Shown one piece after another: positions 30,322-50,427 of a stretch of 64,000 nucleotides of DNA. The translations under genes and the position numbers were made by a program. Origin of the DNA: Candidatus Bathyarchaeota archaeon (GTDB lineage: Archaea > Thermoproteota > Bathyarchaeia > Hecatellales > Hecatellaceae); contig JBQPWD010000005.1 of the NCBI GenBank assembly GCA_052246995.1, positions 1 through 64,000 of the forward strand. Reading direction: 5' to 3'. The notes beneath the pieces are model-generated. The model was not told where the DNA came from, searched no databases, and saw only the letters and a program-made list of their open reading frames with translations. Positions within the stretch are counted from its first letter, which is position 1; each line of letters begins with the position of its first letter.

Positions 30322-30741
30322 TTAAGTTGCGGTGTACGGGCCTTCGGTGTATGTGCCGTCAACACAAACAACCCTTACCACATACGTTGTCCCTGCAGTT
30401 AACGTAACACCATTAATTGATTCGTCGATTATCTCTGCAACCTCGCCTGGATTTACCGCTGTATTGAGATTCGAAGCCGCAAGAACGTTGTTTACATAAA
30501 TTCTATCTACTGTTAGGCTGGTTGTTCCTACGTTTCTCACATACAAAGTAATTTTATTCCCAGTAGAATTAAGCGTTGCTGCTTCTATTCTTAATGCTTT
30601 TCCTGTTTGTGTTACTGTTGTTGTTGTAAAACCCATAACCCACCCGTAAACTATTAACGCTGCCACTACGGCTAAAGCCACCATGAGTAGGGTTGCTATT
30701 ACAGGTGAAACCGCCTTCTTATCCTTTAAAAGTTTAACCAT
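30322..30741 (-). CDS. Archaeal type IV pilin
   Basis: Class III signal peptide KDKKA|VSPVIATLLMVALAVVAALIVY followed by a beta-rich domain (LYVRNVG). Confidence 0.9.
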   Translation of the reverse strand: MVKLLKDKKAVSPVIATLLMVALAVVAALIVYGWVMGFTTTTVTQTGKALRIEAATLNSTGNKITLYVRNVGTTSLTVDRIYVNNVLAASNLNTAVNPGEVAEIIDESINGVTLTAGTTYVVRVVCVDGTYTEGPYTAT

Positions 30742-30853
30742 TTCTTATCCCGTGTAGACAAATTTTCTCGGTACATTTAATTTACAACGCAAATATATAT
30801 GTTTTACTTTTTCTATGTAAGCTTTACCATGCATGTTGATACATCTTACAATC

Positions 30854-32350
30854 TCACCATATATAGCTTGTTTCTTCTTTCTCGTAGAAGGTTTCAATTT
30901 TTAGCCTAACCTTGTTGATTGCAAATCTGCCTGTTAAATTGTCGCATCCTGTCCATGGTGGCATGGATATGGCGAAGGCTATACGTTTCATGCAACCGTA
31001 GGTTTGGCTGTAAGTGATTTGTCCCGCCGCTCCTGATGTATAGGCTAGAGGGTTGGCTGTTTGTCCTCGTAAACCTGAACACCATCCTGTAAAATGCTTG
31101 TTCCAATAGCCTGTGCCGTAGGCTTTGTAAACTGTTGTTCCATCCAGGAATGTTAATGAAGGCCTGTTTGTGTCGTCATCGTTTGGTGGGACGTTCCAGC
31201 ATTCAGGGTTTCCACCATGGCTACACCAGCCATAGCCTTGTGGTTGGCTTTTATATCCTACATTTGGCACATAACTGTAAATGTTCCCCCCTGATTGTGA
31301 AAAATACCAAGGTTTTTTAATGTTGTCTGGTGTTTGGACTTCCAGTTTTGTCCAATGTCCAAAGTCAAACCCTCCACGGTCAAGGTAGTAGACACCTGAA
31401 CCCGTGTAGAAGTAGATAAGCATGATGTAAAGGCTTGTATAGTTGAATGTTCCCCCTTTCCCGTCTGGGTTTCGTAAAGGTAAAACTATTCTACGCCAAC
31501 CAACCCAATTATCGTATGTTGTCCAGGCAATCCAAACAAGTGAACCATCATGGAGTACAACATCTATTTGTGTACCACTATTTTGGCCATAGAACCAGAA
31601 AGCTAAATAATCATAGCTTGAAATGTCAATTGTAGGTGAAAACTCTTTACGAATGGATGGACGGTAATATGTCCCATTTTCATCCAACACAATTTTTAAA
31701 CAGTTGCTTCCACGCATCAACGGGTTTGTTACATTTGTTATACTTGCGATTCTCCTGTTTCCTGTACCGCTTCCGCTTATACTCCAAAAACTTGTTTGGT
31801 TATCATCAAATAGAGTATAGAAGTTTTCTGATTCTTCTTTTTCGTTTACAAGTATAAGTTCCCATGAAAACTTTTTACTTGTACGGTCGACAACAAAGTT
31901 ATACCTGCCATGTGTAGGGTAGATTTCTCTAGCCTTGTTTTGGTAGTCTAAATCTGTTAAATAGACGTTTTCACCTTCAAGTATGCTTGTTGTACCCCAG
32001 AAAGGCAGTTCAGACAGTTCAAGCCTATACCTGGTAAACTTTTCCCCTGATTCACTTGGAATCTCCAAGTTTGTAATTTTTCCTGCAACCGTAAAGCTGC
32101 TTGTTTCCAGGATAACGGTTTTTTGGCTTTGATATAGGTTTAAAAGTTTCTGTATGTTCTCATTTACATTTTGACTTATCAAGCCTTCAATTGTGTAAAG
32201 CGTTTCAGCCGTGCCTAAAGGCTGTAAAACTGTATGTCTAAAGGGTATTTGATGTCTAGCGTAGGTTTTAACTGGTTTTCTGGTTATTCTGGTTACGTTG
32301 CCTATGTTTAAAAGGTCTATTACGTTTTCATCTAGGCCTATTTTAACCAT
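30854..32350 (-). CDS. Distal-tail/receptor-binding protein with a carbohydrate-binding-like insert
   Basis: Last tail gene; N-terminal tail-tip-like beta region; DISSYDYLAFWFYG...WVGWRRIVLPL resembles a CBM11/galactose-binding fold. Confidence 0.6.
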   Translation of the reverse strand: MVKIGLDENVIDLLNIGNVTRITRKPVKTYARHQIPFRHTVLQPLGTAETLYTIEGLISQNVNENIQKLLNLYQSQKTVILETSSFTVAGKITNLEIPSESGEKFTRYRLELSELPFWGTTSILEGENVYLTDLDYQNKAREIYPTHGRYNFVVDRTSKKFSWELILVNEKEESENFYTLFDDNQTSFWSISGSGTGNRRIASITNVTNPLMRGSNCLKIVLDENGTYYRPSIRKEFSPTIDISSYDYLAFWFYGQNSGTQIDVVLHDGSLVWIAWTTYDNWVGWRRIVLPLRNPDGKGGTFNYTSLYIMLIYFYTGSGVYYLDRGGFDFGHWTKLEVQTPDNIKKPWYFSQSGGNIYSYVPNVGYKSQPQGYGWCSHGGNPECWNVPPNDDDTNRPSLTFLDGTTVYKAYGTGYWNKHFTGWCSGLRGQTANPLAYTSGAAGQITYSQTYGCMKRIAFAISMPPWTGCDNLTGRFAINKVRLKIETFYEKEETSYIW

Positions 32351-34149
32351 TCCTCAATCACCCTGATTTTTAAAACCTCATCCAAAATTGTTTCAGGTTT
32401 ATCTCCAAGGGTTATACTCCAAACTTCCCCACCAGAGTCAAGGTTTATTGATATTTTCTGAACCTGGTAAGCCTTGTTTAAGCCTATTTTTCCACATTTA
32501 ACCGTAATTTTATCTCCAACCTGGAAAATTTTGGTTGGGATAATTGTCAAGGTAACTGTTTCCCTTGGGTTTTTATACAGGTTTAAAAGGTTTAAGGCTA
32601 GGGTTGAAGCCATACCTACATCTGTTATGTTCTTGTCAACCTTCACACTTTCCCTAACCCCATATGAAGCTTGACCTGGAAGGTCTTCGGCTAAAGCCTC
32701 AATTCTACTTTCTCCTACAACTTCCCCTATCACTTTAACCTTGTTGACAATTTTTAAACCGTCTAAGGCTAGAGTAGGATTAAAATAGTCTTTTTCAGCA
32801 TCTAAAACCACACTTGAACTTAAATCTTGCCCCCTAGTTTTCTTAAAATGCAGCCTTCCATCAACGTCAACCCAAAACTTTCCGTCAACTAGACTGGCCA
32901 ACCTTTTTAAAGCTTCAAAAACAACTTCAAAATCAACTTCAAACTTGGTTACCAGGTCTTGCCTGAAAACTATACGCCAAGCGTGAAGTCTAGGGTAGTT
33001 TGCTTGTGAAGTTTGGAATTTAGCTTTCAGTTTGATTGCTGTTTGAGATATGTTTGTCATGTTGTAGGGTAGTTGACTTGGCAGGATATCCTGCACAACT
33101 ACGTTATTACTTGAATCTAGAATGTCAAATTTTAAGGTTTGATTGTTAAGCGTATAATCAGCCTCCAACCTATCCCAACAAATGAAGTTTGACGGCTGGA
33201 TTAGGCTGGAAGCCATATCTCCAGTTAAAGGTTGATATCTAACTTTTACACCTAAATCGTTGTTTGGTGCATCTGTCCATGTCTGACCAGAGTTATCTGA
33301 GTAGTGTCTCATACCGTAATCGTAAACACTTATAGGTGTACGTGGAGTATAAAGTGGGTTGCTTGATGATGCGTCAGGTGACCAGAAAATTACATATCTG
33401 GTTGTGTTTGCTGAAACGTAAACTGGATTTTCGAATTCAAATGTCTGCCAAATACTATACTTGACAAATTTTGTTGTTGAAGCTAAAATGTTACCTGTTA
33501 AACCATCCCTAAGCTGCACGGTAACATTATGTCCATAAGTAGAACTAAAAAATATGTTAAAACCATAGATATAGCCGTTTTCAGGAAGTTGAAAACTTTG
33601 AGCTTCTCTTCGTGTTGAACTTGTAATATCCATACCTGGATTCTCTGAATCATAGATAACATGCAACTTCTCGTTTGTTAAGCTTACATAGGCAGTTATA
33701 CCTGAACCGTAAACCTTAGTCTGGTTAAAAGTGTTAGGAGAGAATTCCGTATCTGTTTCCTGAACCCAGCGGGCGTAAACTGGAAAAGGATCCTGCACGG
33801 TTCCAAGTGTCAGGTCTGTTAGGCTTACCAGGTCTTGAACAATTTCTTTAACCTTCTTGTTTTCATAGGTTTTTTTGCCTGTAATTTTCCAGAAAAGTTT
33901 TTGGCTTAAATCTCTACCTGAAACAGTTAAAACCAGACCTTGACCTGTAAGTTTTAAAGTTTTCTTTTCTACCAGTCCCGTGAAAATCTTTAAACCATTC
34001 CTGTAAACTTCAACCTGGTCGCCTATGTTTATGTTTTCCAGGCTTGGAATGGAGATTTCAAAACTCTCGGGAGGGTAAAGTTCAAAATCAAGCCTTAAAC
34101 CTGTAAAAGGATGTTTTCTTTCAGCAATTTTAACTTCAAAAAAAGACAT
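32338..34149 (-). CDS. Baseplate hub/tail-tip protein with inserted beta-sandwich domain
   Basis: GDQVEVY..IFTG.V, GRDLS..L, FWVDVDGRLHF, NKVKVIG, YGVRE, GDKITV; follows the tape measure gene. Confidence 0.7.
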   Translation of the reverse strand: MSFFEVKIAERKHPFTGLRLDFELYPPESFEISIPSLENINIGDQVEVYRNGLKIFTGLVEKKTLKLTGQGLVLTVSGRDLSQKLFWKITGKKTYENKKVKEIVQDLVSLTDLTLGTVQDPFPVYARWVQETDTEFSPNTFNQTKVYGSGITAYVSLTNEKLHVIYDSENPGMDITSSTRREAQSFQLPENGYIYGFNIFFSSTYGHNVTVQLRDGLTGNILASTTKFVKYSIWQTFEFENPVYVSANTTRYVIFWSPDASSSNPLYTPRTPISVYDYGMRHYSDNSGQTWTDAPNNDLGVKVRYQPLTGDMASSLIQPSNFICWDRLEADYTLNNQTLKFDILDSSNNVVVQDILPSQLPYNMTNISQTAIKLKAKFQTSQANYPRLHAWRIVFRQDLVTKFEVDFEVVFEALKRLASLVDGKFWVDVDGRLHFKKTRGQDLSSSVVLDAEKDYFNPTLALDGLKIVNKVKVIGEVVGESRIEALAEDLPGQASYGVRESVKVDKNITDVGMASTLALNLLNLYKNPRETVTLTIIPTKIFQVGDKITVKCGKIGLNKAYQVQKISINLDSGGEVWSITLGDKPETILDEVLKIRVIEEWLK

Positions 34150-34152
34150 TTA

Positions 34153-35466
34153 CTATAATCCACCCTTCTTTTTCTCTATTTCATCGCCAAGTGTTTCCGC
34201 AAGCCGTATAATGTCAATCTCGCTTGAAACATTTTCAATATTCACGTTAATTTCCATAGGGTTTTCCCTGGTAACCGTTACACCTACCATCCGTCTAACC
34301 AGCTCATCCCAATAACCTAAGGTTTCAGGAGGCTTAACGGCTTCAACTGTTGCCACGTTTTTTTGAGTTATAAGCCTTCTAGTCATCTCATCCAGGTAGC
34401 CTAAAGTTTCACCAACATCTTTAGCCGTCTGTTTTTGCCCTAACATTCTCCTTCCAAGTTCATCCATCTTAAGCATGGCTTCAGTTGTAGCCTTGTTTAA
34501 GCCTTCCAAGGAAGTTTTAACGCTGGTAACAGATTCAACCACTTTTCTATTGGATTCCTCAATGCTTTTATTGTAGCCTAAAATGTTTTCTTTCAAAGTT
34601 TTCCAAGCATTATCAAGTCCAGGTAGGAGTGTTTTGGCAACAATGAAAAGGGGATTGTTTTCAACCCACCATAACAGCTTATCAGCCAACCAGGATAAAG
34701 CTCCCCATATCTGGTTACCAAGCCATTCAAAACCGTTTTTAATAGCCTCTAGTCCAGGTTTGATATGGTTTTCATAAATCCCTCCGAAAAACTGGCAAAA
34801 ACCTTCAACCTTCTCCCTAATCCCGCCCCAATTATTTGCCCAAGCTAATGCAAAAACACCTATGGCTGCAGTTAAAGCCATCAAAATTAGACCTATAGGT
34901 CCAAGGCTAACCATAAAACCTTGAATGGCAACTCCCGCAGCCTTGGTTGCAGGTATAAACGTGGCAATCTTAGCCATGCTTAAATTTTGAATTGCTGAGG
35001 TAACCAGGGGGACGGTTGATAAAGCCATTTGGATATATGCCTTGTTAACCTCTTCCTGTGCATTTTTCAACTGGTCTGAGGCTACTTGAACTCTAAGTTC
35101 CGCAGCCTGTAACTGTTCAAGTGTTAACCTATATTCTTCACTTCCTTCTTTACCCTGTTCAACCAGTTTATTCAGCTTTTCCTGTAGGTTGGCTACTTGA
35201 ACCCTAGCCTTGATTAAGGTGGCTTCAGCGGATGCAACCCTGGTTTGAGCGTCCCCTATACGGTCGTAGGCGTTGTAAAGATTCATGGCTGAGCTTACCA
35301 TGTTAGCCATGCTTGTAACAGCTTTTGCAGCCTGCTCCCTGGTAACCGTGAAAGTTTTTTCGGCTTGTTGTTCAAGTCCTTGAAGGTTTTGCCTAGCCTG
35401 GTCTAACCCTTCCTTAGTCTGGTCATAAGCCTTTAAATAAATAGCCACATCTACAGGTGTGGACAT
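34153..35466 (-). CDS. Tail tape measure protein (short, 437 aa)
   Basis: A.D.T N-terminus, Ala/Gln-rich helices, GPIGLILMAL..AWANNWGGIRE TM motif, Trp periodicity, INVNI C-terminus; follows the chaperone pair. Confidence 0.85.
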   Translation of the reverse strand: MSTPVDVAIYLKAYDQTKEGLDQARQNLQGLEQQAEKTFTVTREQAAKAVTSMANMVSSAMNLYNAYDRIGDAQTRVASAEATLIKARVQVANLQEKLNKLVEQGKEGSEEYRLTLEQLQAAELRVQVASDQLKNAQEEVNKAYIQMALSTVPLVTSAIQNLSMAKIATFIPATKAAGVAIQGFMVSLGPIGLILMALTAAIGVFALAWANNWGGIREKVEGFCQFFGGIYENHIKPGLEAIKNGFEWLGNQIWGALSWLADKLLWWVENNPLFIVAKTLLPGLDNAWKTLKENILGYNKSIEESNRKVVESVTSVKTSLEGLNKATTEAMLKMDELGRRMLGQKQTAKDVGETLGYLDEMTRRLITQKNVATVEAVKPPETLGYWDELVRRMVGVTVTRENPMEINVNIENVSSEIDIIRLAETLGDEIEKKKGGL

Positions 35467-35529
35467 GGAAAAACACTTTTCAAAATTTTTTTATAAAAAA
35501 CTAAGAGTAAAAACGCAGAAAATTGTAAA

Positions 35530-35742
35530 TTAAACTATTAACCCTAATTCTCGCCTTTTTAACCTAATTTGGTCTGAAAGGTGTAAGCTTAAAGCCTCTT
35601 TTTCCTCTTCAAAAGTTTCGCTTAGAAGTTTTAAATCCCAAGTTAAAAATTCAATAGGCCTATCCAGGAAAAAGCTTGGTGGAAGATTATAGTTTTTAGC
35701 TAGAATTTTAAATGTCTTTTTCAGGTTTAACAGGATTTCCAA
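35530..35742 (-). CDS. Tail assembly chaperone, downstream frame (gpT-like, probably reached by frameshift)
   Basis: Overlaps the upstream ORF in the +1 frame; LAKNYNLPPS..L..P motif; directly before the tape measure gene. Confidence 0.6.
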   Translation of the reverse strand: MEILLNLKKTFKILAKNYNLPPSFFLDRPIEFLTWDLKLLSETFEEEKEALSLHLSDQIRLKRRELGLIV

Positions 35743-36079
35743 AGGCTGGTTGCCGAAAAAAGCTTAACTTTTCAACTATAGCCTGGAAAATTACCGCTCT
35801 ATCCTCCTCAAAAATCTCGTCAAACCCTATTTCACTTGGAATTTTAGGTTCTAAAACATATTCCTGGAAAAGTTCTTTCATCAATTCTCTAACCCTTTTA
35901 GCCAGCTCTAAAGTTTCAAGTTCATAAGGCTTTTCCAAACCATGTTTCCTTGAAAGCTCCAAAAAGGGGATTGAATCAGTTAAAACCCTAACCTTCACGG
36001 TTAAACCGTTAGGTGTATTCACAATTTTAACAGTTTTACGTCTATAATCCTCCAGAAAAACTTTCTTGGCTTTAACCAT
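35708..36079 (-). CDS. Tail assembly chaperone (gpG-like)
   Basis: Between tail tube and tape measure genes; VKVRVL, VLEPK; slippery TTT TTT CGG near the end. Confidence 0.65.
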   Translation of the reverse strand: MVKAKKVFLEDYRRKTVKIVNTPNGLTVKVRVLTDSIPFLELSRKHGLEKPYELETLELAKRVRELMKELFQEYVLEPKIPSEIGFDEIFEEDRAVIFQAIVEKLSFFRQPAFGNPVKPEKDI

Positions 36080-36124
36080 AAAAACACCACCTTTTTCAGC
36101 CTAGGTTTTTAGGATTTTTACTGT

Positions 36125-36602
36125 TTATTTTTGGTCAAGTTGATGTTGTTTACGGTATGCTGGTTTTCTTCCCTTAGCTTTGCAGTATTCTTCGTATGCT
36201 TGTCTGCTTAAGCTGTCAGCTTCCTTGTTTTGTTCTCTTGGAATCCATACAAAGAAAATGTTGGAAAAATGTTGAGTAAGCTTAACTGCCTCAACATAGT
36301 ATGGGTAGTATAAGCCTTCATATGCCTTCCACAACCTGTTCATCTGGTTGACAAGAAGTTGACTGTCTGAGAATATGACAACTTTTTCATTATGCCAACC
36401 ATGTTTAACCAGCTTTTTTAACGCCTTAACTAAGGCTGAATATTCTGCAACATTGTTACTCATTTCAGCACCCTCGCCTACAACACCCTTACCAGTAAAC
36501 AGTTTAACGTTATGCTTGTAAACAACAAAACCCCAACATGCAACTCCTCCAGGATTGACTGGTTCACTAGCAAAGCCCATCAATGTAGACTATGATGGGC
36601 AT
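36125..36602 (-). pseudogene. rnhA: Archaeal-type ribonuclease HI with a 4-nt insertion
   Basis: GGAGGTGGTGA SD, then MPIIVYIDGLC[TAGT]EPVNPGGVA..SNNVAEY..SDSQLLVNQM..WIPREQNKEADSLS; removing 4 nt restores one 157-aa frame. Confidence 0.85.
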
Positions 36603-36658
36603 TGTTTCACCACCTCCATTTTTCTGGTAAGGAAAAACTGTAAAGGGGAAAATGGTTG

Positions 36659-37390
36659 TTAAAACCATTTTTCAATCTTTCCTTGGCTTTTTTCCGTTAA
36701 AAATGGGGATAGTTCTTTTTTTATGAAGTAGTTTACTCCATGTTTATCCATAAACTCAACCAGTTTTGGCAACTCAGTTTTATAGTATTCTGGATGTAGC
36801 GGCCTGAGTTTGTAGTTGTGTGAACCTACAATCCACCAGTCAACTGTATCCATCAGTTTTTCAACTATGATTATAGGGTTGGTGTAGTCTTTAAGCCAAG
36901 GTTCAAGGGATATAAAGGTTTTAATACCTAAGTTTTTAGCCTTTTTTAAAGCTTGAATTCTCAATTCAGGCGGAGGGGCGTAGGGTTCATAAGGGTTTTT
37001 TGTCAAGCTTACAATTGTAAACCCAACCTGGACGTTTTTATACTGCAATATTAAGTCGTAGTCTTTTTCAACAAGGTTTGACTTTGTTAAAATTAAAATT
37101 TCATGTTTAGACTGTAAAAGCCTTTCAAGCCAAAACCTTGTTTGCCTTAAAATCCAGTCTACAGCCTGGTAGGCATCACCTATATCTTCAAAAAAAACTT
37201 TACCTTTAGGTTGTTTAACAAGCCCCCTAAACCTTTCCTCATTATTTTTTAACAGTTTAGGGTTTTTCCAGTCATCAGTCCACCTTACCTGCCTATTCAT
37301 GTCTTTAGCGTAACAGTAAAGGCAGTCATGAATACATCCAGCAAAAAAGTTGAAAACATAGTTACACCAGTCTACACCTGAAAGCCTCAA
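36659..37390 (-). CDS. Radical SAM protein, DUF5131 (phage Gp37/Gp68)/SPL-like
   Basis: NFFAGCIHDCLYCYA (CxxxCxxC), ILTK, FISLEP, DWWIVGS. Confidence 0.75.
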   Translation of the reverse strand: MRLSGVDWCNYVFNFFAGCIHDCLYCYAKDMNRQVRWTDDWKNPKLLKNNEERFRGLVKQPKGKVFFEDIGDAYQAVDWILRQTRFWLERLLQSKHEILILTKSNLVEKDYDLILQYKNVQVGFTIVSLTKNPYEPYAPPPELRIQALKKAKNLGIKTFISLEPWLKDYTNPIIIVEKLMDTVDWWIVGSHNYKLRPLHPEYYKTELPKLVEFMDKHGVNYFIKKELSPFLTEKSQGKIEKWF

Positions 37391-37433
37391 AAACCATCAA
37401 AAAACTTGGCAAACAATTAAAATTTAAACTTTG

Positions 37434-38336
37434 CTAGTAGCTTGAAATGTTATTCTTCAGCTTTAAGGCAACCTCGTATTGGCTGGTTGAATCGTAGAGG
37501 ACAAGCATGGGTGCAGTTATCCTTAAAGGTTCATTACGGTCTATATGGGGTGCTGCGTCGCTCCTGATAACCATTTTTGGCAGGTGAATTTCAAACTCAT
37601 AGGTGCCTTTAGTGAATTTTAAGCTTAGTGAAACCTCGTTTCCAGCTAAGAATTTATCATATTCGCTTGTATCTGGAAAAGCCATTTCCAACTCAGCCTC
37701 AACAGTCCTACCACGTACAACCATGGTTGTAGGTGTATTATCGCTAAAACCGTATAGTTCATCTTCAGGAATGTTGTTGTTTATTGTCAGCCTTAAGGCT
37801 TTGAGATACTTGGACCTGTCTATACCAGCCAGGGTTAAAACTCCTTCCTTGAAAACGAATGGTGCTAATGTTGAAATTGTAGGTGTATAGTTTGAAGTGT
37901 CCTTTTCCTCTTTTTTGGCTATGATGTCTATGCCTCCCGTGACAATGTCTAAGGCTGTTTCAATTGTAAGCCTGTTTATCAGGCAGCCTGTTATTCTTCT
38001 CTGGACTGTTTCGCTTTTAACAATCATGCTGAAGCTTTTAATCGTGTCTGCACCTTTAAAGGTGTGTTGATATGGTCCTGTACCTGTGGTTGTAACCGAA
38101 CCTAAAGCCCACTTAAAAAATTGGCCGACATTTTCAGGTTCAACTGTAAAATCTATGCTTCCAGTAACCCTGCTCCTTCCTTCAACATACTTTCTAATAT
38201 CCCTGGAATAGACTGTTTCAACTGGTATATAGCCCTTGTCAAAGCTAACCCTTTCCCGTAGAATGTCTACGTATCTGCTTGGGGATACAAATGTTCCATA
38301 GCTTGTTTCCTCAGCTACACCTATCCATCTAGACAT
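37434..38336 (-). CDS. Major tail tube protein
   Basis: IGVAEETSYGT N-terminus, GSIDF, HTF, GCLINRLTI, LTINNN; position. Confidence 0.85.
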   Translation of the reverse strand: MSRWIGVAEETSYGTFVSPSRYVDILRERVSFDKGYIPVETVYSRDIRKYVEGRSRVTGSIDFTVEPENVGQFFKWALGSVTTTGTGPYQHTFKGADTIKSFSMIVKSETVQRRITGCLINRLTIETALDIVTGGIDIIAKKEEKDTSNYTPTISTLAPFVFKEGVLTLAGIDRSKYLKALRLTINNNIPEDELYGFSDNTPTTMVVRGRTVEAELEMAFPDTSEYDKFLAGNEVSLSLKFTKGTYEFEIHLPKMVIRSDAAPHIDRNEPLRITAPMLVLYDSTSQYEVALKLKNNISSY

Positions 38337-38339
38337 TTT

Positions 38340-38594: not shown

Positions 38595-38600
38595 CTCCTT

Positions 38601-39011: not shown

Positions 39012-39096
39012 TTAAAAAAACACTTTAAGGTTAAGCTTAAACTTAAAACCAACCTAAAAAAATAAAAAAGTAAAAACTGGAAAAATGTTAAAACAT

Positions 39097-41458: not shown

Positions 41459-41535
41459 AAAACAACGCTTTCAAAAATTGTTTTTAAAAAAAAGTTTTGA
41501 AAAAGAATTTTAAAATTCTAAAAATTTGTTGGTTT

Positions 41536-41796: not shown

Positions 41797-41818
41797 TGGT
41801 CAACCACCTCTATCTAGT

Positions 41819-42859: not shown

Positions 42860-43011
42860 GGCTTACCCTTCCACTTTCACCTTAAACCCTACCCTGGAAA
42901 GGCTAACATGGTGAGGGGTGAAGGGCAGCCCTATTTAACCCTCAACACAGCCTAACCAACATTAAAAAATTCCAGGTTTGTTTGTTGGCTAGGTCTGTCA
43001 TCATCGGGTTA
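42860..43011 (-). ncRNA. Structured RNA leader of the capsid gene: K-turn hairpin plus a second stem abutting the start codon
   Basis: UAACCC-GAUGAUGA-CAG-A-CCUAGCCAACA...UGUUGGUUAGG-CUG-UG-UUGA-GGGUUA, then GGCUGCCCUUCAC..UCACC pairing with GGUGA..GUGGAAGGGUAAGCC. Confidence 0.5.
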
Positions 43012-43027
43012 GCTTTAAAAATTAAAG

Positions 43028-44044
43028 TTAGGTTTTAATTCGGATTTTTCTTGTTTTTGGTAAAAGGCTTTCCAAGATTGTGTTAACCTTTACGCTTAAC
43101 CTTTCAACCTCGTCAACCAGCTTCTCCATCCTCTCATTTAAATCCTCAAGCTTAAAGACAATAGTAGCTGATTCAAATGTGGGAGGTTCACGTTCAAACT
43201 CTCTGTAATGCTGAGCTAAATGATTATACACGCCTTTTCTATCTTCGTCTGGAATGTCTACTCCTCCCCTTGCCCCGAAAAGTGCAGCCATAGCCGCAGC
43301 CACACCTCTCCAAACCACGCTAAACCTTCCACCGACAAACTTGTGGTGAGGTAGTTTATATCCTGCTTTGACATCAGCTTTTTCAGGATCGTACCATACA
43401 TGGGCTTCACGATATAATTCCCACCCTCCCTTGTCCAGGATAAAATTTCCATCGTCAGCGGTGAAACTCCATTCTGTGTCTTCTGGTGCTTTATCATAGT
43501 TTCTTGTATGTTTTACAACTTTTTCTTTAACCTGGTTTTCCAGTTTTTTATCCACCTCCTTACCAGTTTTATAAGTGTTAACTTTTTCAAACAGTTTCTC
43601 CAAAACCTGGATGTTTGTTTCTGGAACACCTGGTACGGCTACAAGGCTAAGCTCTTTAAACCCAAGGCCTCTTGGAATTCTCCCGTTAACTGGTTCTATG
43701 AGTTCATAGTTGGCTGCAATTGAAACATGCTGGATAAGACCAGTCTTAATCTTGTTTGCTACCTCATCATCGTAAATTTCAGCCTCATACATGATAGCCT
43801 TCTCCTTGTCATCCCACCAGGCGTTTACAACTTTCCCTACCGCCTTGTCCGCTGAAACATGCTCTATGTAAACTGGTTGCCCTACCAGGCTTTGAACAGC
43901 CTTTTTCAACTCTTCTTCGATGTATACGTTATAGTTTCTTGAAACTCCAGCCTTTACAGCTATTCCCCTAATCCTAAGAACTGGTTGGATTTGGGTTTTC
44001 TCTAAGGTTTCAAGCCAAACAAAACTATCCATTTTCAACTTCAC
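43028..44044 (-). CDS. Prohead maturation protease with C-terminal extra domain
   Basis: G.A...GVSRN...Y..EEL, IEH, VGKV, VSI, ELSLVAVPGVP; C-terminal YKLPHH..VVWRGV..GARGG..HL..HY. Confidence 0.88.
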   Translation of the reverse strand: MKLKMDSFVWLETLEKTQIQPVLRIRGIAVKAGVSRNYNVYIEEELKKAVQSLVGQPVYIEHVSADKAVGKVVNAWWDDKEKAIMYEAEIYDDEVANKIKTGLIQHVSIAANYELIEPVNGRIPRGLGFKELSLVAVPGVPETNIQVLEKLFEKVNTYKTGKEVDKKLENQVKEKVVKHTRNYDKAPEDTEWSFTADDGNFILDKGGWELYREAHVWYDPEKADVKAGYKLPHHKFVGGRFSVVWRGVAAAMAALFGARGGVDIPDEDRKGVYNHLAQHYREFEREPPTFESATIVFKLEDLNERMEKLVDEVERLSVKVNTILESLLPKTRKIRIKT

Positions 44045-45476
44045 CCTCCAAACATTTTAAAAACTCGTAAACTAGGGGAAAGTTTTCCCTATACCAAGCC
44101 TTAGCCAAGTCTAACGTCCAGTTGTATACGCTTTTGTCAAATATGATTTGTATAACCCTTCTTCCTAACCCTGTAATCCATGCTGTTTGCATAGATACAC
44201 CTTTATCCGAGTCTAAAGGCTGGTAACGTATGGTTGAAGTGTCAACCTGGTCTGGATCCTGTAGTTGAAGTATAACCTGGTTTGTCAAGTTATACCATCT
44301 TGGCGTCCAAACCTGGAATTGTTCTTCTAAACCTTCCTTGGGAATTTCTGGTTCGGGGACAGGTATACCCATCATCTGCAACATCTTTATGACTTGTAAA
44401 CGGCTAAGAATTCCAACATCCGCTTTAGCCAAGTTTACCAGGTCGGAAATTTTCAAATCTTCTATGCCGCTTCTAGGATAACCCCAATTCAGTTTTACGT
44501 GGACATCATTTAAATCACAAGCCTTCAGAAGAGGTTTCCAGATTTCACCCTCCACTTTCCTTTTAATATAACGTTGTAAAGCCTTCACGTCACGGTCTAC
44601 ACATTCAAGCATAACTTTAGCCGAGGCTTCAGTTGCATTGCGTAGATAGGACAGTAGTGGACCTCTCATCCCCTCAAAAATTTTTCTTTCCACAGCCTCC
44701 AGGAGTTCGCCAAACCTTACACGGCTATCAACCTGGATTACGTTTGTTTCTATTTCTCCTGTAGCCAGAATTGGATCTCCAGGTTTCCTTTTCTTTAAAA
44801 CTTCCATGAAATAGTCAACATCAGCCTTATTCTTAAATGTGAAAACAGGGATTGGGTAGGCTGTTTTATAGACAACTTCAACCATGTTTTCCATGTTTTT
44901 TATGTCAAAATCAAGGAAACGGGCGACAGGTTCAACTATTCCAACCCCATACCCCGACATTTCTACATCATTCCATTTAAAATGAACTATCTCCTCAGGA
45001 TTAAACTCAACTCTAGCTCCTGTAGCCTCCTCCACGTAGCCTTGAATCTCGCCAAACCTATCCCTAACAATTTTCATTTTGGCTGTTGGTAGTCTTTTAA
45101 CCCTGGTAAGCCTACCATTCTCATTAAAAATTTTCTCCAGAAAACTGTTTCCAGTTATAAGCATATCTTTCACTATTTCCAGTAAAAGCTCATCCATGTT
45201 GACTTTAGCGTTAAACTCGTCAACAATTTCTTTAGCCCTGGTTTGCCTGGAATCCTCACCATTATCTACAGTAGTGTAAAACCCTGGTCCTGCAACCATC
45301 CCCGCCAAACTATCCACACTTGATTTTACCAAGGGATGGGTTTTATAATAGCCATAAAGCTGACTGTAGCTTACAGGTTGAGGTTTTCCCCATGTAGACC
45401 AAAACTCAAAATAAGGTTCTACAACACCTTTCTGTTCACGTATAAACAGTTTCCTAAGTCTTTCAAAAACACCCAA
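44025..45476 (-). CDS. Portal protein
   Basis: HPLVKSSVD, D.LITGNSFLE, EIVHFKWN...YGVGI; between terL and protease. Confidence 0.9.
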   Translation of the reverse strand: MGVFERLRKLFIREQKGVVEPYFEFWSTWGKPQPVSYSQLYGYYKTHPLVKSSVDSLAGMVAGPGFYTTVDNGEDSRQTRAKEIVDEFNAKVNMDELLLEIVKDMLITGNSFLEKIFNENGRLTRVKRLPTAKMKIVRDRFGEIQGYVEEATGARVEFNPEEIVHFKWNDVEMSGYGVGIVEPVARFLDFDIKNMENMVEVVYKTAYPIPVFTFKNKADVDYFMEVLKKRKPGDPILATGEIETNVIQVDSRVRFGELLEAVERKIFEGMRGPLLSYLRNATEASAKVMLECVDRDVKALQRYIKRKVEGEIWKPLLKACDLNDVHVKLNWGYPRSGIEDLKISDLVNLAKADVGILSRLQVIKMLQMMGIPVPEPEIPKEGLEEQFQVWTPRWYNLTNQVILQLQDPDQVDTSTIRYQPLDSDKGVSMQTAWITGLGRRVIQIIFDKSVYNWTLDLAKAWYRENFPLVYEFLKCLEGEVENG

Positions 45477-45616
45477 AAAAACACCTCTAAATTAAAATAG
45501 AAAACAGGAAAAAGCTGGTTTTGAAAAGTTAAACTTAAAAAAAGTTTAAGCTTGTAGCTTTATAGGTGAAAAAAAGTTTTTTGTTTTAAGGTTTCAGCTG
45601 GGAGGGTTGTGTTGGC

Positions 45617-45688
45617 TTATTTTGCACACTTACTTTTCTCTTCTTTTTTCTTCTCTTCTTTTTTCTTCACTTCTTTTTTCTTAGCCAT
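45617..45688 (-). CDS. Lys/Glu-rich micropeptide (23 aa)
   Basis: AAGGAGA SD, then MAKKKEVKKKEEKKKEEKSKCAK*; TATA-like TTTTAAATA upstream. Confidence 0.45.
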   Translation of the reverse strand: MAKKKEVKKKEEKKKEEKSKCAK

Positions 45689-45742
45689 GGTCTCCTTCAT
45701 TTAAAAATATAGAGATAGTTATTTAAAAGTTTTTACTACTTT

Positions 45743-47038
45743 TCACCATTTCCATTGTTCAGCAGTTGTAACTTCAAGCTTTTCTTCCCTAGTTGCATAA
45801 ATGGCTAAGGCTAGACTCCATACACGGTCGTCATGGCTACCCTCAGGATGGTAAAACTTTATACTTCCATCTTTGGCTAATTCAAATTTTTCATTGTTCA
45901 ATTCGGCTAGAAGTTCAGCATCATAAGGAATTTTCAGGTTTTTATTTTGCATTTGTTGTTTTAAAAACCCTAAAATTTCCTGTTTACGGGGCATGGTTAA
46001 AATTACCCCCTGGACACCTGGAATCCCGCTGTTTCTCATATCTTCCAAGATGTACTCTCCAACACCTGTCTGGTCGATTAAAACCTGGTAAACAGTTTTA
46101 TAACGGTCTGTAAGAGTTTTAACATAACCTATAACACTAGCATAAGGAGTTTCCAAGGGAAACCTGTACATGTGAACCAGTTTAAACCCATCCTCCTGCC
46201 TATCTACCACGCTTACAACTGAATAGTCAACCTTTTTACCCAGGTCAACACCTATGTAAAAGTTTCCTTGAACATGGTCTTCAAAGTCATAATATTCCAG
46301 TTCTGCGTCTATACATTGGGTTATCAAACTTCTAGGCAAATAGCTATCACTATCCTCTGTAAACCTGGCTTCAAACTCCCTTTCAAAACGTTCCAAGGGG
46401 AGAACCCTTCGCATCTCCTCAATAAATTCTTTCTTTATCAGGCCTGCTTTAACCACATCCCTCCAGGTTACAACATGCTTGGAAAAACCTGGATCCTGAA
46501 ACATTTTGTAAAAAACGCTATCTATGGACCAGGGTGTACTGGAAACTATTAAGTAGCCGTCGGTTGTTGAAAGCATAGGGTAAAGCACATTGTAAAACAC
46601 TACTTCATCCTCACGGAAAAATGCAGCCTCATCAGCTATAACCATGTGGGCAGTATAACCTCTTAAAAGGTTTGGACTGTTAGGCAAGGCAACAATTTGC
46701 GAGTCGTTTTTAAACCTTACAACTGTCCGCTGCATTTTAGCTATCATATGTTTTTGAAGCTGTCTGGGTATTCGATGTAGGAAGACTTGCAGCCTATCCA
46801 TCATAATCATGCTTTGCCTTAGGCTGGGTGAAACGATTAGGGTTAAAGTTTTAGGATGGGTTACCACAAACCATATCGCCTTGACGGCTAGTGTAGATGT
46901 TTTCCCCGCCTGCCTCGACATTATGACACATATACGTTTACTTTTATCGTTTAAAAGCTTCTCCTGGTAAAATGTCGGCTTAAAACCAAGAAGCTTCTCA
47001 GCAAAAAGCGAGGGGTTTTGACGTAAAACCTCAACCAT
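45743..47038 (-). CDS. terL: Terminase large subunit
   Basis: P..YQ, Walker A SRQAGKT, LRG, Walker B IADEAAF, SSTP, nuclease GVDLG, DQTGVG, HDDRVWSLALA. Confidence 0.95.
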   Translation of the reverse strand: MVEVLRQNPSLFAEKLLGFKPTFYQEKLLNDKSKRICVIMSRQAGKTSTLAVKAIWFVVTHPKTLTLIVSPSLRQSMIMMDRLQVFLHRIPRQLQKHMIAKMQRTVVRFKNDSQIVALPNSPNLLRGYTAHMVIADEAAFFREDEVVFYNVLYPMLSTTDGYLIVSSTPWSIDSVFYKMFQDPGFSKHVVTWRDVVKAGLIKKEFIEEMRRVLPLERFEREFEARFTEDSDSYLPRSLITQCIDAELEYYDFEDHVQGNFYIGVDLGKKVDYSVVSVVDRQEDGFKLVHMYRFPLETPYASVIGYVKTLTDRYKTVYQVLIDQTGVGEYILEDMRNSGIPGVQGVILTMPRKQEILGFLKQQMQNKNLKIPYDAELLAELNNEKFELAKDGSIKFYHPEGSHDDRVWSLALAIYATREEKLEVTTAEQWKW

Positions 47039-47045
47039 ACGGTTT

Positions 47046-47393
47046 TTAACCCTTTCTACCTATCTCAGCCAGTTCTTCTTTTGCTCTAGTATATTTGTTG
47101 CAAGATTTGTAGAGACCAAAGCAGATTAGAATGTCGGGGTAGGAGATTGGTTGAGGACGTTTTTCGGCTTCACATCTACCGTTTATAAAAAAGAGACAGC
47201 CATCCTGTTCTTTTAACGTTGAAAAATGTTGTATACAAAAGCTTGAAAGTAGGGTTGCAGCCTGCTCGTTATAGTCTAGTTTTAGCTTTTTACAAACATT
47301 TTTGAAAACAATTGTAATATAGTTTGGAATGGAAAAACTACAATTAACCTTCTTTTTTAAATCTTCAACCCTTTTTCTACCCATAAAAACCAC
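47046..47393 (-). CDS. Putative ribbon-helix-helix DNA-binding protein with Cys-rich C-terminal domain
   Basis: Basic N-terminus, beta strand VNCSFSIP then two helices; four Cys in GCLFFINGRC...ICFGLYKSC. Confidence 0.5.
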   Translation of the reverse strand: MVFMGRKRVEDLKKKVNCSFSIPNYITIVFKNVCKKLKLDYNEQAATLLSSFCIQHFSTLKEQDGCLFFINGRCEAEKRPQPISYPDILICFGLYKSCNKYTRAKEELAEIGRKG

Positions 47394-47421
47394 TTGCTTT
47401 TTAACTTGGTCAGCTTAGATG

Positions 47422-47739
47422 GCTAAAGTAGTATTTTTGTAAGAATTTTGGTGAAAAACCGGAAATTTTTGTATACAAAAATATTTTTAGATTTTTTTAT
47501 TATATACAACCTCTAATTGAATTTTTTTATTTATCTTATTCTATTCTCTAAGGTTAACCAATTCTACACTTTATTCTCCATTTTTTTAATTTTTAGTTTA
47601 TTTTTGGTTTAAAACCTAGAATTTTCACCTTCTTTAAGTTGTCCAAGTTTTCTTTTTTTGTTTTAAGCTTCGAAAATATTTTTGTATACAAAAATATTGA
47701 GTTTTTGAGTGATATTCTTACAAAAAATGTTACTTTAGC
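47422..47739. repeat. ~66-bp imperfect inverted repeats with palindromic cores around an AT-rich spacer
   Basis: Arms 47422..47487 and 47673..47739; both contain ATTTTTGTATACAAAAAT. Confidence 0.85.
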
Positions 47740-47776
47740 GATTTTTCTGGTGGTTTTGACGTAGCTTTTTCAACCA

Positions 47777-48187
47777 TCACATTCCCATAAGCTCTTTTAC
47801 CATGTTGTCAACCATGTCAACAACTTTTTGCTGCTGTTTTAGGCTTAGCCTTTCCTTTCTTGTTAAAGCTAAACCTTCAATCCAGTCTAAAATTATTCTG
47901 CAAAGTTTTTCATAACTTCCAACATAGCTGGAAAGTTTACCATGTTTAAGCTCCTTAACTGGTTTGTTTAACTCGTCAAAAATCAGTTTACGTAGTTTTT
48001 GAAGTAAAACCAGGTTTTTAGCTGTTTCATCAACCATTAAAACGTCTACTTCAGCTTCAACACCAAGATTTTTCAATGTTTCCATGATTTTACTTTTAAC
48101 TTTTTCAACATCCTCGTCAGCTATTTTCCTCCAACCAGGGGGGAGAATGTTTACAATTTTACATCTAACCTGTTTTTCCAGTTTCAC
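47777..48187 (-). CDS. Candidate terminase small subunit
   Basis: Helical 136 aa upstream of terL; LALTRKER resembles the P27-type GLTPxxR motif. Confidence 0.5.
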   Translation of the reverse strand: MKLEKQVRCKIVNILPPGWRKIADEDVEKVKSKIMETLKNLGVEAEVDVLMVDETAKNLVLLQKLRKLIFDELNKPVKELKHGKLSSYVGSYEKLCRIILDWIEGLALTRKERLSLKQQQKVVDMVDNMVKELMGM

Positions 48188-48503
48188 CTTTTAAACCCTC
48201 CAAAAGTTTGCCAATAAAATCCATGGTTGGAACTTTAGCTGGTATTAGGCATAATATTCCCCTGGACGTTTCAACATAGGCAAAATTTACATCTTCAAAA
48301 AACCTGTGAAACTCTTTGGGAATGTAAATTCTCATGCGTTTTTTATCCTTGTTGATTTTTAAAAATTTACCCAATGCCCTATTTACCCTTTTACCCTCAT
48401 ACCCTCCAGACTTTTGAATTTTAAATTGTTTTCCAGTATTTTGGATTTTTAGTTTCCACCAGTTTTTTAACTTCGCTTGCCAGGTTGAGGCTGCAAGTTT
48501 CAC
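48165..48503 (-). CDS. AbrB/SpoVT-like DNA-binding protein (start probably further downstream)
   Basis: RMRIYIPKEF...AYVE...ILCLIP swapped-hairpin pattern. Confidence 0.45.
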   Translation of the reverse strand: MKLAASTWQAKLKNWWKLKIQNTGKQFKIQKSGGYEGKRVNRALGKFLKINKDKKRMRIYIPKEFHRFFEDVNFAYVETSRGILCLIPAKVPTMDFIGKLLEGLKGETGKTG

Positions 48504-48630
48504 ATAAAATCATTGTTGGCCTTTCTCTTTTAGTGAAAATTGAGAAAATCAAACATTCAGTATTGTAAAATGTTTTTTCACAGCTTCCACATCTAAACGC
48601 TTTAAAGGTTTCTTTAGCGATTTTAAGCAT
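48421..48630 (-). CDS. Zinc-finger protein
   Basis: CGSC...LCETC. Confidence 0.65.
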   Translation of the reverse strand: MLKIAKETFKAFRCGSCEKTFYNTECLIFSIFTKRERPTMILCETCSLNLASEVKKLVETKNPKYWKTI

Positions 48631-48642
48631 TTAAATCCCTCT

Positions 48643-48873
48643 TCACGTCTTACTCCTGGTAACCATGCCTGTTAAATGTCCTATAAGGGCCATGGTTAGG
48701 CTGAGGATGGTTGGTTCAAACTCTCCATGCTGTATATAATACAGTATATTTAATATTAGGAGAGCTGTTAGGCAAACCAAGTTTGTTATAAAAATACCCT
48801 CAGCTTTTGAAGACTCCTCCCTACTTGTTTTTCTAAACTCTAAAAGCTTATCCAGGCCTAACATGGTAAACAT
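48643..48873 (-). CDS. Two-TM small membrane protein (holin-like topology)
   Basis: Two hydrophobic helices with charged ends. Confidence 0.5.
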   Translation of the reverse strand: MFTMLGLDKLLEFRKTSREESSKAEGIFITNLVCLTALLILNILYYIQHGEFEPTILSLTMALIGHLTGMVTRSKT

Positions 48874-49228
48874 CCCTAGCCTTAAGCAGAAAACCCTCTA
48901 AAGGCAGCTCGGAAACTAGGCTTTTAAACGTGAAATCTTTTTCATAACTCATTTTTTCAAAGTTGTTTTCAACAACCTTCACCTTTTTAATACTTTTAAT
49001 ACAGCCTAAAGGTATGGCAACTTTGAAGTGCTCCGCCAAACCCCTTTCACTTGTTATAATCAATTTGCCTTTAACAACGTCAACAACAAAACCAACATCA
49101 ACAATCTCGGCGAAAGGATCCTCCTTAAAGGCTTTAGCATCCTCCCAGATAATCATGACGAAGTCTCCTTTCCTCAGTCTTCTAACTTTTTTCAAAATTT
49201 CCTCAAAATCTTCAAGCTTTTCAGCCAT
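48848..49228 (-). CDS. Hypothetical viral protein (small beta-barrel-like)
   Basis: LRKGDFVMIIWEDA...VGFVV...IPLGCIKSI. Confidence 0.6.
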   Translation of the reverse strand: MAEKLEDFEEILKKVRRLRKGDFVMIIWEDAKAFKEDPFAEIVDVGFVVDVVKGKLIITSERGLAEHFKVAIPLGCIKSIKKVKVVENNFEKMSYEKDFTFKSLVSELPLEGFLLKARDVYHVRPG

Positions 49229-49231
49229 GAA

Positions 49232-50035
49232 TTAACCCTCCAAGGCTTTTTTACCTTTTTCCCCAGCTTTTTCCATGGTTTTCAAGCCAACATAACGTTT
49301 AAAATCCACGTTACCAACAACTTTAGGCAAAAAAAGGTAGCAACTGTAGGCTGAAGTACATCGAGCGTTAATTTTGAAATAGATTGGGTAGGATTGTAGC
49401 CCATGATGCATAGCTAAAATATTCATAAAGTTTTCCTGAATTTTCTGGCAATATTCACCTAAATGCTGAATGCTTTTAAACTTACCATGTTTAACAGGAA
49501 AACTTTGTAAATAGTGTTTTTCCAGGTTTGTGTTGCTTAAACGTCTAAAGTTTAAGATAAAACCATCAGTCAGGAAACATATAAGAAAGCTTTTAGGACT
49601 GTAAACCTGGAAAAACTTTTTCACTTGGGCAGTTGGAGAACCGAAAGCGTCAAAGTCAACATGGGTTATGGGTTCGTCAAGGCTGAGGTTTTTCTCCAAA
49701 AACTCCATGTTATCCATGTTGTAAAACTCTGTAGGACATTTATTTTTAAACTCAGCCAGGTTTTCCTTTAAAACTTGGAAAAAACGTTTATCCTTTTCAA
49801 CACAGATAAGCTTTTCACAACCATGCTTCGCATACAAATACGCCAAAAAACCTTTACCTGAAAAAAGGTCTAAAACAGTTTTTCTTGGAAACATCAGGTA
49901 AACCTGCATACGTAAATTTATCTTATCCTGGTCAGCTTGTTCAAGCTTATAGCCGTCTTTACCAACATAGCTTGGACCTTGAAAAAGCTTTCTAGGCAAT
50001 TTCCAACGTGAACTGTATAAGCCTTTTCCAGTCAA
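49232..50035 (-). CDS. Class I SAM-dependent methyltransferase-like protein
   Basis: VLDLFSGKG (motif I), CVEKD, DN..FL, VDFDAFGSP, FLTDG. Confidence 0.75.
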   Translation of the reverse strand: MTGKGLYSSRWKLPRKLFQGPSYVGKDGYKLEQADQDKINLRMQVYLMFPRKTVLDLFSGKGFLAYLYAKHGCEKLICVEKDKRFFQVLKENLAEFKNKCPTEFYNMDNMEFLEKNLSLDEPITHVDFDAFGSPTAQVKKFFQVYSPKSFLICFLTDGFILNFRRLSNTNLEKHYLQSFPVKHGKFKSIQHLGEYCQKIQENFMNILAMHHGLQSYPIYFKINARCTSAYSCYLFLPKVVGNVDFKRYVGLKTMEKAGEKGKKALEG

Positions 50036-50037
50036 AA

Positions 50038-50247
50038 CTAATCAACCAAACATGGATGAATATACCTTGGAAAAGCAAACAAAACATCTCCACATTCAAC
50101 ATTCAAAACATGATAGTCTTTTAAGGCTACAAGCTCTCCCCTTTCACGATCATAGAAGGCTTCACGAAAAACCCTTCTCCTCTCCAGCCTAACCAGTCTA
50201 CACATCTCCCTCATTTTTTCAGCTTTTTTAGAACGTTTATGAGGCAT
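50038..50247 (-). CDS. Small basic hypothetical protein, first gene of the cluster
   Basis: MPHKRSKKAEKMREMCRL...; GTGG SD-like before ATG 50247. Confidence 0.5.
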   Translation of the reverse strand: MPHKRSKKAEKMREMCRLVRLERRRVFREAFYDRERGELVALKDYHVLNVECGDVLFAFPRYIHPCLVD

Positions 50248-50427
50248 AAAAACCACTAACCAAGCCACACAACCCAGCATTAAAAACAAGAAAAAGCTGG
50301 GAGGCAGCTGACACCTAAAAAACAAAACAAAAAGGAAATATTTAAACACCATTACGTTTAAAAAACATTAAAAAACATCTAAAAACATTAAAAATTAAAA
50401 GTTGTTAATAAAAATTAAAAGTTAATT

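Follow-up and report, generated by a model that had tools for sequence, protein, structure and literature searches.

The 64,000-nucleotide window that we analyzed is the first 64 kb of the 196.6-kb contig C5 in a metagenome-assembled genome (MAG) of the Bathyarchaeia (1.53 Mb in 17 contigs, 36% GC; G000 below), a sequence present in public runs from hot-spring metagenomes. This archaeal host carries in the window a chromosomal element of about 20 kb with the head and tail genes of a tailed virus, all open reading frames (ORFs) of which, from 30322 to 50352, lie on the minus strand. A preliminary description of this DNA had proposed such a one-strand head-tail cluster, and its coordinates and gene order hold; the named genes stood by family match for the large terminase (TerL), portal, capsid, tail tube, and tape measure and by a fold model for the protease, whereas only their position identifies the adaptor, terminator, and chaperone pair. 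The Pfam scan took in 31 of the 32 element ORFs (all but the 50-aa ORF at 30745-30897), PHROGs was searched beside it, and tRNAs were called with ARAGORN. Among the relatives used for comparison, G001 is from the same genus as G000 (both g1), G006, G009, and G011 belong to genus g6 (G011 by its genome label), G002 and G003 represent sister genera, and G007 is a further relative with the same element layout; L-numbers denote loci from relatives and C-numbers contigs.

On its upstream, early-gene side the element is bounded by a host gene, tRNA-Leu(CAG) (50428-50513, plus strand), which stands 75 bp from the first ORF and leaves the element on its 5' side, as originally reported. The first element gene (50038-50352) encodes a small basic protein of unassigned role (phrog_17707, 2e-6) in which conservation is confined to the C-terminal ~68 aa (from 50247), and its homologs hold the same end position in G002, G003, G009, G022, G032, and G007. 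Next comes the gene of a lineage-conserved S-adenosylmethionine (SAM)-dependent methyltransferase (49232-50035; Pfam Cons_hypoth95, 6.9e-9), which is 49 to 59% identical to its same-position homologs in G002, G003, and G009 and is merged with the first gene in a single ORF in G003. The five small ORFs that follow (126, 76, 69, 112, and 136 aa; 47777-49228) have no assigned role and matched no Pfam or PHROG family at the cutoffs used, the 69-aa ORF alone giving a sub-cutoff match to Zn_ribbon_12 (0.0058). The 136-aa ORF (47777-48187) is, by position only, a candidate for the small terminase, and its G001 homolog (62% identity) lies directly upstream of TerL. A G000-specific insert (47046-47776), absent between these two genes in G001, comprises a 115-aa ORF (47046-47393) and an ORF-free stretch (47394-47776) with inverted repeats of ~70 nt (47419-47487 and 47673-47742, 81% identical), each arm of which contains a small palindrome, and with a fold z-score of -5.4. 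This stretch could be an insert resembling a miniature inverted-repeat transposable element, or a packaging or regulatory site.

The head genes begin with TerL (45743-47038; Pfam Terminase_6N 7.5e-15, 6C 1.5e-5), which is 80% identical to the G001 protein and 59% identical to that of a provirus record in IMG/VR. The portal gene (44025-45476) is recognized by a Phage_portal match of 9.3e-9, under the curated cutoff, together with its position after TerL and its homologs in relatives. The product of 43028-44044, of 338 aa, has no sequence family in Pfam or PHROGs, and a PDB sequence search was unhelpful. Its AlphaFold2 model has a predicted local distance difference test score of 67 to 90 over most of residues 21-135 (with dips at 34-38 and 113-125) and an overall mean of 49.7; the modeled N-terminal domain best resembles, in fold, the Epstein-Barr virus protease (E 4.9e-4), with further herpesvirus proteases next in rank, and His62 and Ser108 are invariant in an alignment of seven homologs. 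The assemblin fold is that of the prohead proteases of tailed viruses, and with moderate confidence we predict an assemblin-fold capsid maturation protease (N-terminal ~135 aa) with a helical, scaffold-like C-terminal part. The major capsid protein (41819-42859) is of the HK97-type family (Phage_capsid_2 1.8e-8; phrog_544 and phrog_267, major head protein). It is followed by the head-tail joining genes (40425-41796), which are two candidates of 86 and 208 aa assigned by position only and a 136-aa Neck1/tail-completion gene (40425-40835; phrog_5, 7e-10; HK97-gp10_like 7.9e-4, just under the cutoff).

Head and tail genes are separated by five tiny ORF calls (51 to 72 aa; 39011-40421) in the lowest-GC part of the element (0.32-0.34). 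They match no Pfam family at or above the curated cutoff (E about 0.03 to 0.04 at best) and have no counterpart as a block in G001; the block also holds a perfect 26-bp palindrome (39641-39666) and a decayed partial duplicate (39100-39225) of the start of ORF 39374-39580. Two neck or tail-terminator candidates of 136 and 84 aa (38340-39011; phrog_8346, 8e-5) are kept upstream of the tube gene in G001, G003, G006, and G009, and the tail tube itself (37434-38336) is recognized by both databases (Phage_tube_2 5.9e-29; phrog_290, 3e-33). Between the tube and chaperone genes sit two accessory genes that are absent there in G003 and G006. One encodes a radical SAM/DUF5131 protein recognized by Pfam (36659-37390). 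The other encodes an RNase HI (Pfam RNase H; 36125-36583), which is broken as initially described: the first 11 codons, among them the one for the catalytic Asp aligned to its counterpart in the Sulfolobus tokodaii enzyme, are read in a different frame (36602-36570) that ends in a stop, the remainder runs from 36583, and the PDB match to the Sulfolobus tokodaii RNase HI (5e-24) begins at chain residue 10.

An overlapping ORF pair (123 and 70 aa; 35530-36079) without a Pfam or PHROG family occupies the tail-chaperone position and has conserved counterparts in G006 and G009; the overlap contains a T6 run, and a shift of +1 or -2 would be required to enter the downstream frame. From this position we infer that the two are tail chaperones. 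The tape measure of 437 aa (34153-35466) matches five PHROG tape-measure families (best 2e-10), and at 0.15 nm per residue, which we take as a rule of thumb, it would set a tail of about 65 nm. The tail-tip block (30854-34149) is the most variable part of the element (54 to 58% identity to G001) and consists of a 603-aa hub/tail-tip protein (32338-34149; YQBQ-like 1.5e-11; phrog_400 and phrog_177, baseplate hub/tail) and, toward 30854, a 498-aa distal protein that is a receptor-binding candidate; the latter has no Pfam or PHROG family, and a PDB sequence search gave nothing useful for it. A gene for an archaeal type IV pilin-like protein (30322-30741; Pilin_N 3e-7) closes the tail end, but its membership in the element is uncertain: it has a paralog on C4 (32%), and the elements of G002 and G003 have no pilin counterpart at their ends. 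A sheath gene was not seen in the element, so that its tail would belong to the non-contractile type, and from its genes (tube, tape measure, no sheath) the element would be siphovirus-like.

This morphogenesis module is not accompanied by genes for integration or replication, in agreement with the preliminary description. Among the scanned ORFs, Pfam recognized no recombinase, helicase, primase, polymerase, or Orc1/Cdc6 family, and the PHROGs matches in the element are to structural families only. A six-frame search with the tyrosine-recombinase family PF00589 gave a single match in the genome, on C2, and none on C5, and three integrase queries (from G000 and two relatives) found no match in the window. 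Nor is there a replication or lysogeny-control module, the region upstream of TerL being filled by the methyltransferase and the small unassigned ORFs.

The bounding tRNA-Leu(CAG) is the sole CAG copy in the G000 genome and is present in eight other genomes of the family; its neighborhood differs between genera, and it does not adjoin the element in G002, G003, or G009, where both loci are known. In the G001 assembly, which is 97% complete, no tRNA-Leu(CAG) was found, the matches being a GAG tRNA, a CAA tRNA, and one unassigned 36-nt match. The downstream boundary falls between 30234 and 30853. No tRNA k-mer of at least 11 nt recurs in the window. A direct repeat joining the flanks, which had been thought absent, does exist as a 13-nt AT-rich sequence (30269 and 50363), but with 14 copies in the genome it is weak as an att site, and the junctions of the G002 and G003 elements share 10-mers only, at chance level.

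The flanks of the element have features of their own. Directly 3' of the tRNA, the interval 50721-50936 (plus strand) encodes the C-terminal half of a PIN-domain (VapC-like) protein (profile positions 64-117 of 120), and this truncated gene may be the scar of an earlier insertion at tRNA-Leu(CAG). It is followed at 50986-54183 (minus strand) by the gene of a 1,065-aa NosD/beta-helix protein, whose GC (0.44-0.47) and third-position GC (GC3, 0.467) are far above those of the genome; a copy on C1 (167.7-169.2k), 58 to 65% identical, is split across several frames, and the gene has no DNA match in G001. On the opposite side, a DUF433 gene and a 67-aa ORF, a possible toxin-antitoxin pair, occupy 28309-28904 between phosphoribosyltransferase and DUF362 genes that are 91 bp apart in G001.

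Homologs of TerL are found in 35 of 61 related genomes, G000 included, and in 9 of the 13 other genomes of the family (two of them of a distant type at 26 to 27%), and at the DNA level the element was matched in 68 of the 401 class genomes. Outside the family, several genomes contain multiple TerL copies or fragments with stop codons. The layout, running from the small first gene through the methyltransferase, small ORFs, TerL, and portal to the tube, chaperone pair, tape measure, and tip, is common to G002, G003, G006, G007, G009, G011, and G013; no TerL was found at its expected place in G007. Compact integrase-less elements of about 16 to 20 kb sit between housekeeping genes in G002 and G003. 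The G003 element (~16.3 kb) has KaiC/MEDS genes on one side and DUF4143, FTR1, CN-hydrolase, radical SAM, and PolD genes on the other, and that of G002 is bordered by sugar-nucleotide genes and by a CRISPR array, after which come S6e and Rpb7 genes. The contigs of these two elements gave no PF00589 match, so the lack of an integrase or replicon is a trait of the lineage and not an accident of the G000 copy. The lineage appears to be specific to the Bathyarchaeia and combines a full particle-building module and a methyltransferase with no integrase or replication genes of its own. The CRISPR-like array of G002 (L036:10141-10600) abuts the tail end of the element, and its repeat is ~89% like that of the G000 array on C8.

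Integrases do occur in the wider TerL clade, 8.8 kb from TerL in L052 and beside a tRNA-Arg on contig C3 of G040. An integrase in G009 was considered as an element gene and rejected, since a tRNA-Val and an aminotransferase gene intervene and it faces away. The closest TerL outside the genus (59%) belongs to the record classed as a provirus by IMG/VR, which has a Cas4-like nuclease and a phosphoesterase within 10 kb upstream of TerL. In this record (L049:10001-11356) TerL is present as two ORFs in the same frame (10001-10423 and 10469-11356), which suggests an in-frame stop.

If the element were inherited vertically with its host, as part of the host-maintained system that the preliminary description had favored, its genes should share the history of host genes, for which we used the large subunit of PolD as a marker. 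The PolD tree recovers the family as a clade, with g1 (G000 and G001) sister to g6 (support 99). The TerL tree has 33 rows, 4 of the 37 available being shorter than 330 aa and left out (G027 C76, G027 C96, JAWBRY, and G008), and it places g1 with the IMG/VR provirus and g6 with g2, g3, and g5 (support 100). An approximately unbiased (AU) test on TerL rejects the grouping of g1 with g6 (p 5.5e-46), a grouping that was taken from the host tree after the TerL tree had been seen. The G027 C76 protein, outside the tree, is 67% identical to that of G000 over residues 5-271, closer than any other genus of the same family.

Comparisons of individual genes point in the same direction. G000 and G001 are 80 to 89% identical in host proteins, while in their element proteins identity falls from 80% for TerL to 43% for the capsid and 40% for the tape measure; the proportion of synonymous differences (pS) is 0.59 to 0.76 in the element against 0.42 to 0.64 in five flank genes and 0.45 in PolD. 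A pS comparison between G013 and G008 was discarded because of an implausible segment. By PolD, G011 is closer to G006 (~77%) than to G000 (roughly 66 to 74%), yet its head genes are of the G000 type (protease 68 to 72%, portal C terminus 81%), and none of them matches G006. Head modules have thus been exchanged between genera. Accessory genes vary as well: G000 alone has the radical SAM and RNase H pair, and g6 and g7 carry DUF362 together with different radical SAM genes.

The surroundings of the element are not conserved either. Its flanking genes differ in g1, g2, g3, g5, and g7, so that the order DUF362-pilin-tail...head-tRNA-Leu, proposed as a test of synteny, is not shared across these five genera, and blocks that flank the element in relatives are kept in G000 elsewhere without it (the PolD block at C5:113.8-118.5k; C4:185.8-187.9k). 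After its DUF362 gene, G001 continues with the ortholog of a gene on G000 contig C3 instead of with the pilin and tail genes, and its local gene order is rearranged. The location of related elements at different places in five genera indicates either that the lineage has moved or that the genomes have been rearranged. Given that head regions move between genera and positions differ, a strictly vertical gene transfer agent (GTA) is not supported; the lineage rather evolves within a virus gene pool, with module exchange, accessory turnover, and a TerL history that conflicts with that of the host.

Two neighboring genes were tried as synteny anchors and set aside. The KaiC-like gene of G003 is 43% identical to that at 56006-57427 of the window, but G000 has at least five paralogs; the NUDIX gene at the tail end of the G007 element is 65% identical to the window gene at 26083-26508, but a G000 paralog reaches 57% and the next genes map to C7. 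A KaiC-like ATPase gene lies 0.7 to 5.6 kb from the upstream end of the element in G000 and G003 (L033:11054-12469), and another in G022 (L045:14530-15909) lies about 175 bp past a tRNA-Arg, some 23 kb downstream of TerL. At 32 to 43% identity, the KaiC-like genes near the elements are probably a set of paralogs.

Whatever its history, the element is kept under selection. All of its structural genes are full-length relative to their homologs, and dN/dS, the check suggested for neutrality, is 0.07 to 0.30 in 10 of 12 element segments (dS being saturated in the other two); the element genes are under purifying selection. The codon style had been described as resembling that of the neighboring genes, and this is so in GC3, which is 0.362 in the element and 0.33 to 0.35 in its immediate neighbors, but both differ from the genome (0.277 +/- 0.019), in which the element stands at the 99.8th percentile. 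In codon use as a whole the element is atypical for the genome (L1 distance 0.26 versus 0.128 +/- 0.031), only 1.2% of 500 host blocks being as deviant.

A search found six hot-spring runs from two studies with the sequence, and four of them, from one study, were mapped onto positions 28300-48299. These four contain short, low-depth contigs only, with similar depth over flank and element and little or no cover of the tail tip (30.3-33.6 kb). No joint linking the element ends was seen in the stretch covered, outside which the right junction lies; the sole joint listed connects 28370 to 38877 with 21 letters on its shorter side, and among the rows listed there is no loose end at the left junction.

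Taken together, we regard the element as a dependent or cryptic provirus of the tailed kind, resident in the chromosome, reliant on host or helper functions, and belonging to a lineage without integrase, and we give this reading about an even chance. Such an element could still build particles, would be replicated along with the chromosome by the host replisome, and might move through recombination functions supplied in trans by the host or a helper virus, or through homologous recombination with incoming relatives. It is best termed a minimal, dependent, or cryptic provirus and not a demonstrated GTA, and the deleted or helper-dependent provirus that the preliminary description kept as its alternative fits at least as well as the host-maintained agent it preferred. 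What speaks for the latter is the full cluster without integrase or replicon, its lineage-wide occurrence, purifying selection, host-like GC, and a g6 pair that diverged as its hosts did; vertical inheritance is contradicted by the TerL/PolD conflict, the head-module exchange, the low capsid identity within a genus, the differing flanks, accessory turnover, atypical codon use, and the integrase-bearing relatives.

Several observations nevertheless weigh against the provirus reading. No integration mechanism was found, as there is neither an integrase nor a convincing att repeat, and pairwise comparison of six elements (six upstream ends and three downstream ends) revealed no conserved terminal sequences. 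Each family genome with a TerL match has exactly one. The GC content of the element follows that of the host across 38 to 62% (element/host, 0.377/0.393 in G000, 0.623/0.581 in G003, 0.516/0.472 in G002, and 0.381/0.395 in G009). The elements of G006 and G009 are collinear and 67 to 92% identical, with a pS of 0.35 to 0.53 that is near that of host PolD (83% identity; 0.52), so the divergence of these two roughly equals that of their hosts. Every family genome with a DUF362 match (12 of 14, including G000) has a single copy, and in G006 (L037:8335-9411), G009 (L038:11908-12963), and G007 (L136:3358-4416) this sole DUF362 (4Fe-4S) gene sits within the element, immediately upstream of the portal gene and, in G006 and G009, after TerL; the G000 ortholog (56 to 57% identical) lies just beyond the tail end. 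A sole genomic copy embedded in the g6 and g7 elements suggests fixation. The TerL topology is, apart from g1, compatible with the host tree, and monophyly of the family in TerL is not rejected by the AU test (p 0.06). Finally, the searches turned up no free viral contig of this type: with the tube alignment, IMG/VR yielded no relatives, in a search by short peptide patterns that was not exhaustive, and metagenomes yielded 10 matches on host-sized or short contigs. The CRISPR arrays of G000 (C14:1-2900, at least 43 repeats with a ~66-bp period; C8:18850-19750, 12 repeats with a ~76-bp period) hold no spacer that matches the window or the loci of relatives (best match, 18 nt), and across the 401 class genomes there was no convincing spacer-type match, only homologous stretches and a few of 27 to 33 nt at 91 to 96%, near chance.

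These signs of long residence fit a long-resident, possibly domesticated element as well. With a long host association, selection, a single copy, and no sighting as a free virus, a domesticated particle system is therefore a serious rival, although we consider it distinctly less probable than the dependent provirus. Under this explanation each genome would keep one integrase- and replicon-free cluster as a GTA-like agent or a PBSX-like defective-phage particle, expressed under host control, packaging host DNA or used against competitors, and with modules occasionally refreshed by recombination with related viruses. What defines a GTA is that its particles take up random host DNA in fragments too short to carry the genes of the whole system. 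The absence of integration and replication genes from the G000, G002, and G003 elements is what one would expect of it, as is the tube protein, whose identity to that of G000 follows host kinship across its range of 55 to 71% (71% in G001, 66 to 67% in g6, and 55% in g3). It accounts less well for the conflicting TerL and host trees, for heads exchanged between genera, and for flanks that differ in five genera despite conserved neighboring host blocks. Accessory turnover and atypical codon use also tell against it, the conserved methyltransferase would have no obvious use in a particle that carries host DNA, and G007, without TerL at the expected place, suggests that the system is dispensable there.

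Decay offers a further explanation, according to which the element is the dead and decaying remnant of an ordinary temperate virus whose integrase and early region were deleted. The frameshifted RNase HI, the decayed duplicate at 39100-39225, the non-coding insert with inverted repeats upstream of TerL, and the truncated PIN gene beside the tRNA would all fit this, as would the relatives with integrases or more early genes, the TerL fragments with stop codons in several class genomes, and the TerL-less G007. We nevertheless find it unlikely, since the breaks are confined to accessory genes while the structural genes are all full-length with low dN/dS, and since this reduced layout, first gene included, is found again in at least five genera, which independent deletions would not yield. 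An assembly or binning artifact, in which a viral contig was misjoined to host DNA, is very improbable. The MAG is in 17 contigs, and in the MAG of G001 the element is spread over small contigs of 2.9 to 6.1 kb with breaks at the portal, between tube and tape measure, and in a tip gene; yet in G000 it is enclosed by host genes within a contig of 196.6 kb, the depth of flank and element is similar in the short contigs of the four public runs, and related elements sit inside contigs of 47 to 481 kb.

According to passages of PMC11841831, GTAs are marked by vertical inheritance and coevolution with the host, DNA of 4 to 14 kb, the absence of replication genes, and a small terminase without a DNA-binding domain. 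The agent type of Rhodobacter capsulatus and its relatives (RcGTA) resembles our element in layout, a one-strand cluster of ~15 to 20 kb with TerL, portal, protease, HK97-type capsid, tube, and tape measure, as well as in the absence of integrase and replication genes, in purifying selection, and in one copy per genome. It differs in its vertical inheritance, as given in the same passages, where we find TerL-host conflict, module exchange, and differing flanks. The voltae transfer agent of Methanococcus voltae, mentioned in the part of PMC11841831 available to us, shares, by description only, an archaeal host and the idea of a head-tail particle, but its host is a methanogen and not a member of the Thermoproteota.

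Defective prophages of Bacillus such as PBSX are resident, lack integration and replication functions, and are kept intact. The tail-tip protein of our element matches a YQBQ-like Pfam family, a likeness to PBSX; the PBSX tail is contractile, however, and the element has no sheath gene. Closer in host are the Bathyarchaeia viruses Kunpengvirus, Fuxivirus, BATPV1, and BATPV2, which, in the parts of PMC10848311 and PMC11705971 available to us, are likewise proviruses in MAGs with tailed-virus hallmark genes, the latter source giving 38 head-tailed proviruses of which eight are in Bathyarchaeia. Kunpengvirus is described in passages of PMC10848311 as having an integrase, an MCM-like helicase, and a family B polymerase, and by this description it is set apart from an element of about 20 kb with none of the three.

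Tailed proviruses of Bathyarchaeia have thus already been published; what we have not found described is a lineage of 16- to 20-kb morphogenesis elements without integration or replication genes that is single in most genomes of one family. By title or abstract, no paper retrieved in a search on GTAs of archaea and Bathyarchaeota deals with such a lineage, and the phrase "gene transfer agent" is absent from the portions of PMC10848311, PMC11705971, and PMC13573593 available to us; the supplementary lists of the provirus papers may include the element. It is tempting to speculate, as a tentative possibility, that in this family of hot-spring Bathyarchaeia each genome retains a single head-tail system, fixed in the chromosome and free of integrase and replicon, whose modules are renewed at intervals by recombination with circulating viruses. 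What the particles package cannot be told from sequence, and their DNA content is the deciding datum. If they carry their own DNA, the elements would be among the smallest archaeal tailed viruses, with a way into the chromosome that is yet to be recognized. With host DNA inside, they would amount to a gene-exchange system in an abundant uncultured archaeal class, and a domesticated origin, if true, would make this the first GTA-like or domesticated virus-particle system in the Thermoproteota (TACK archaea).

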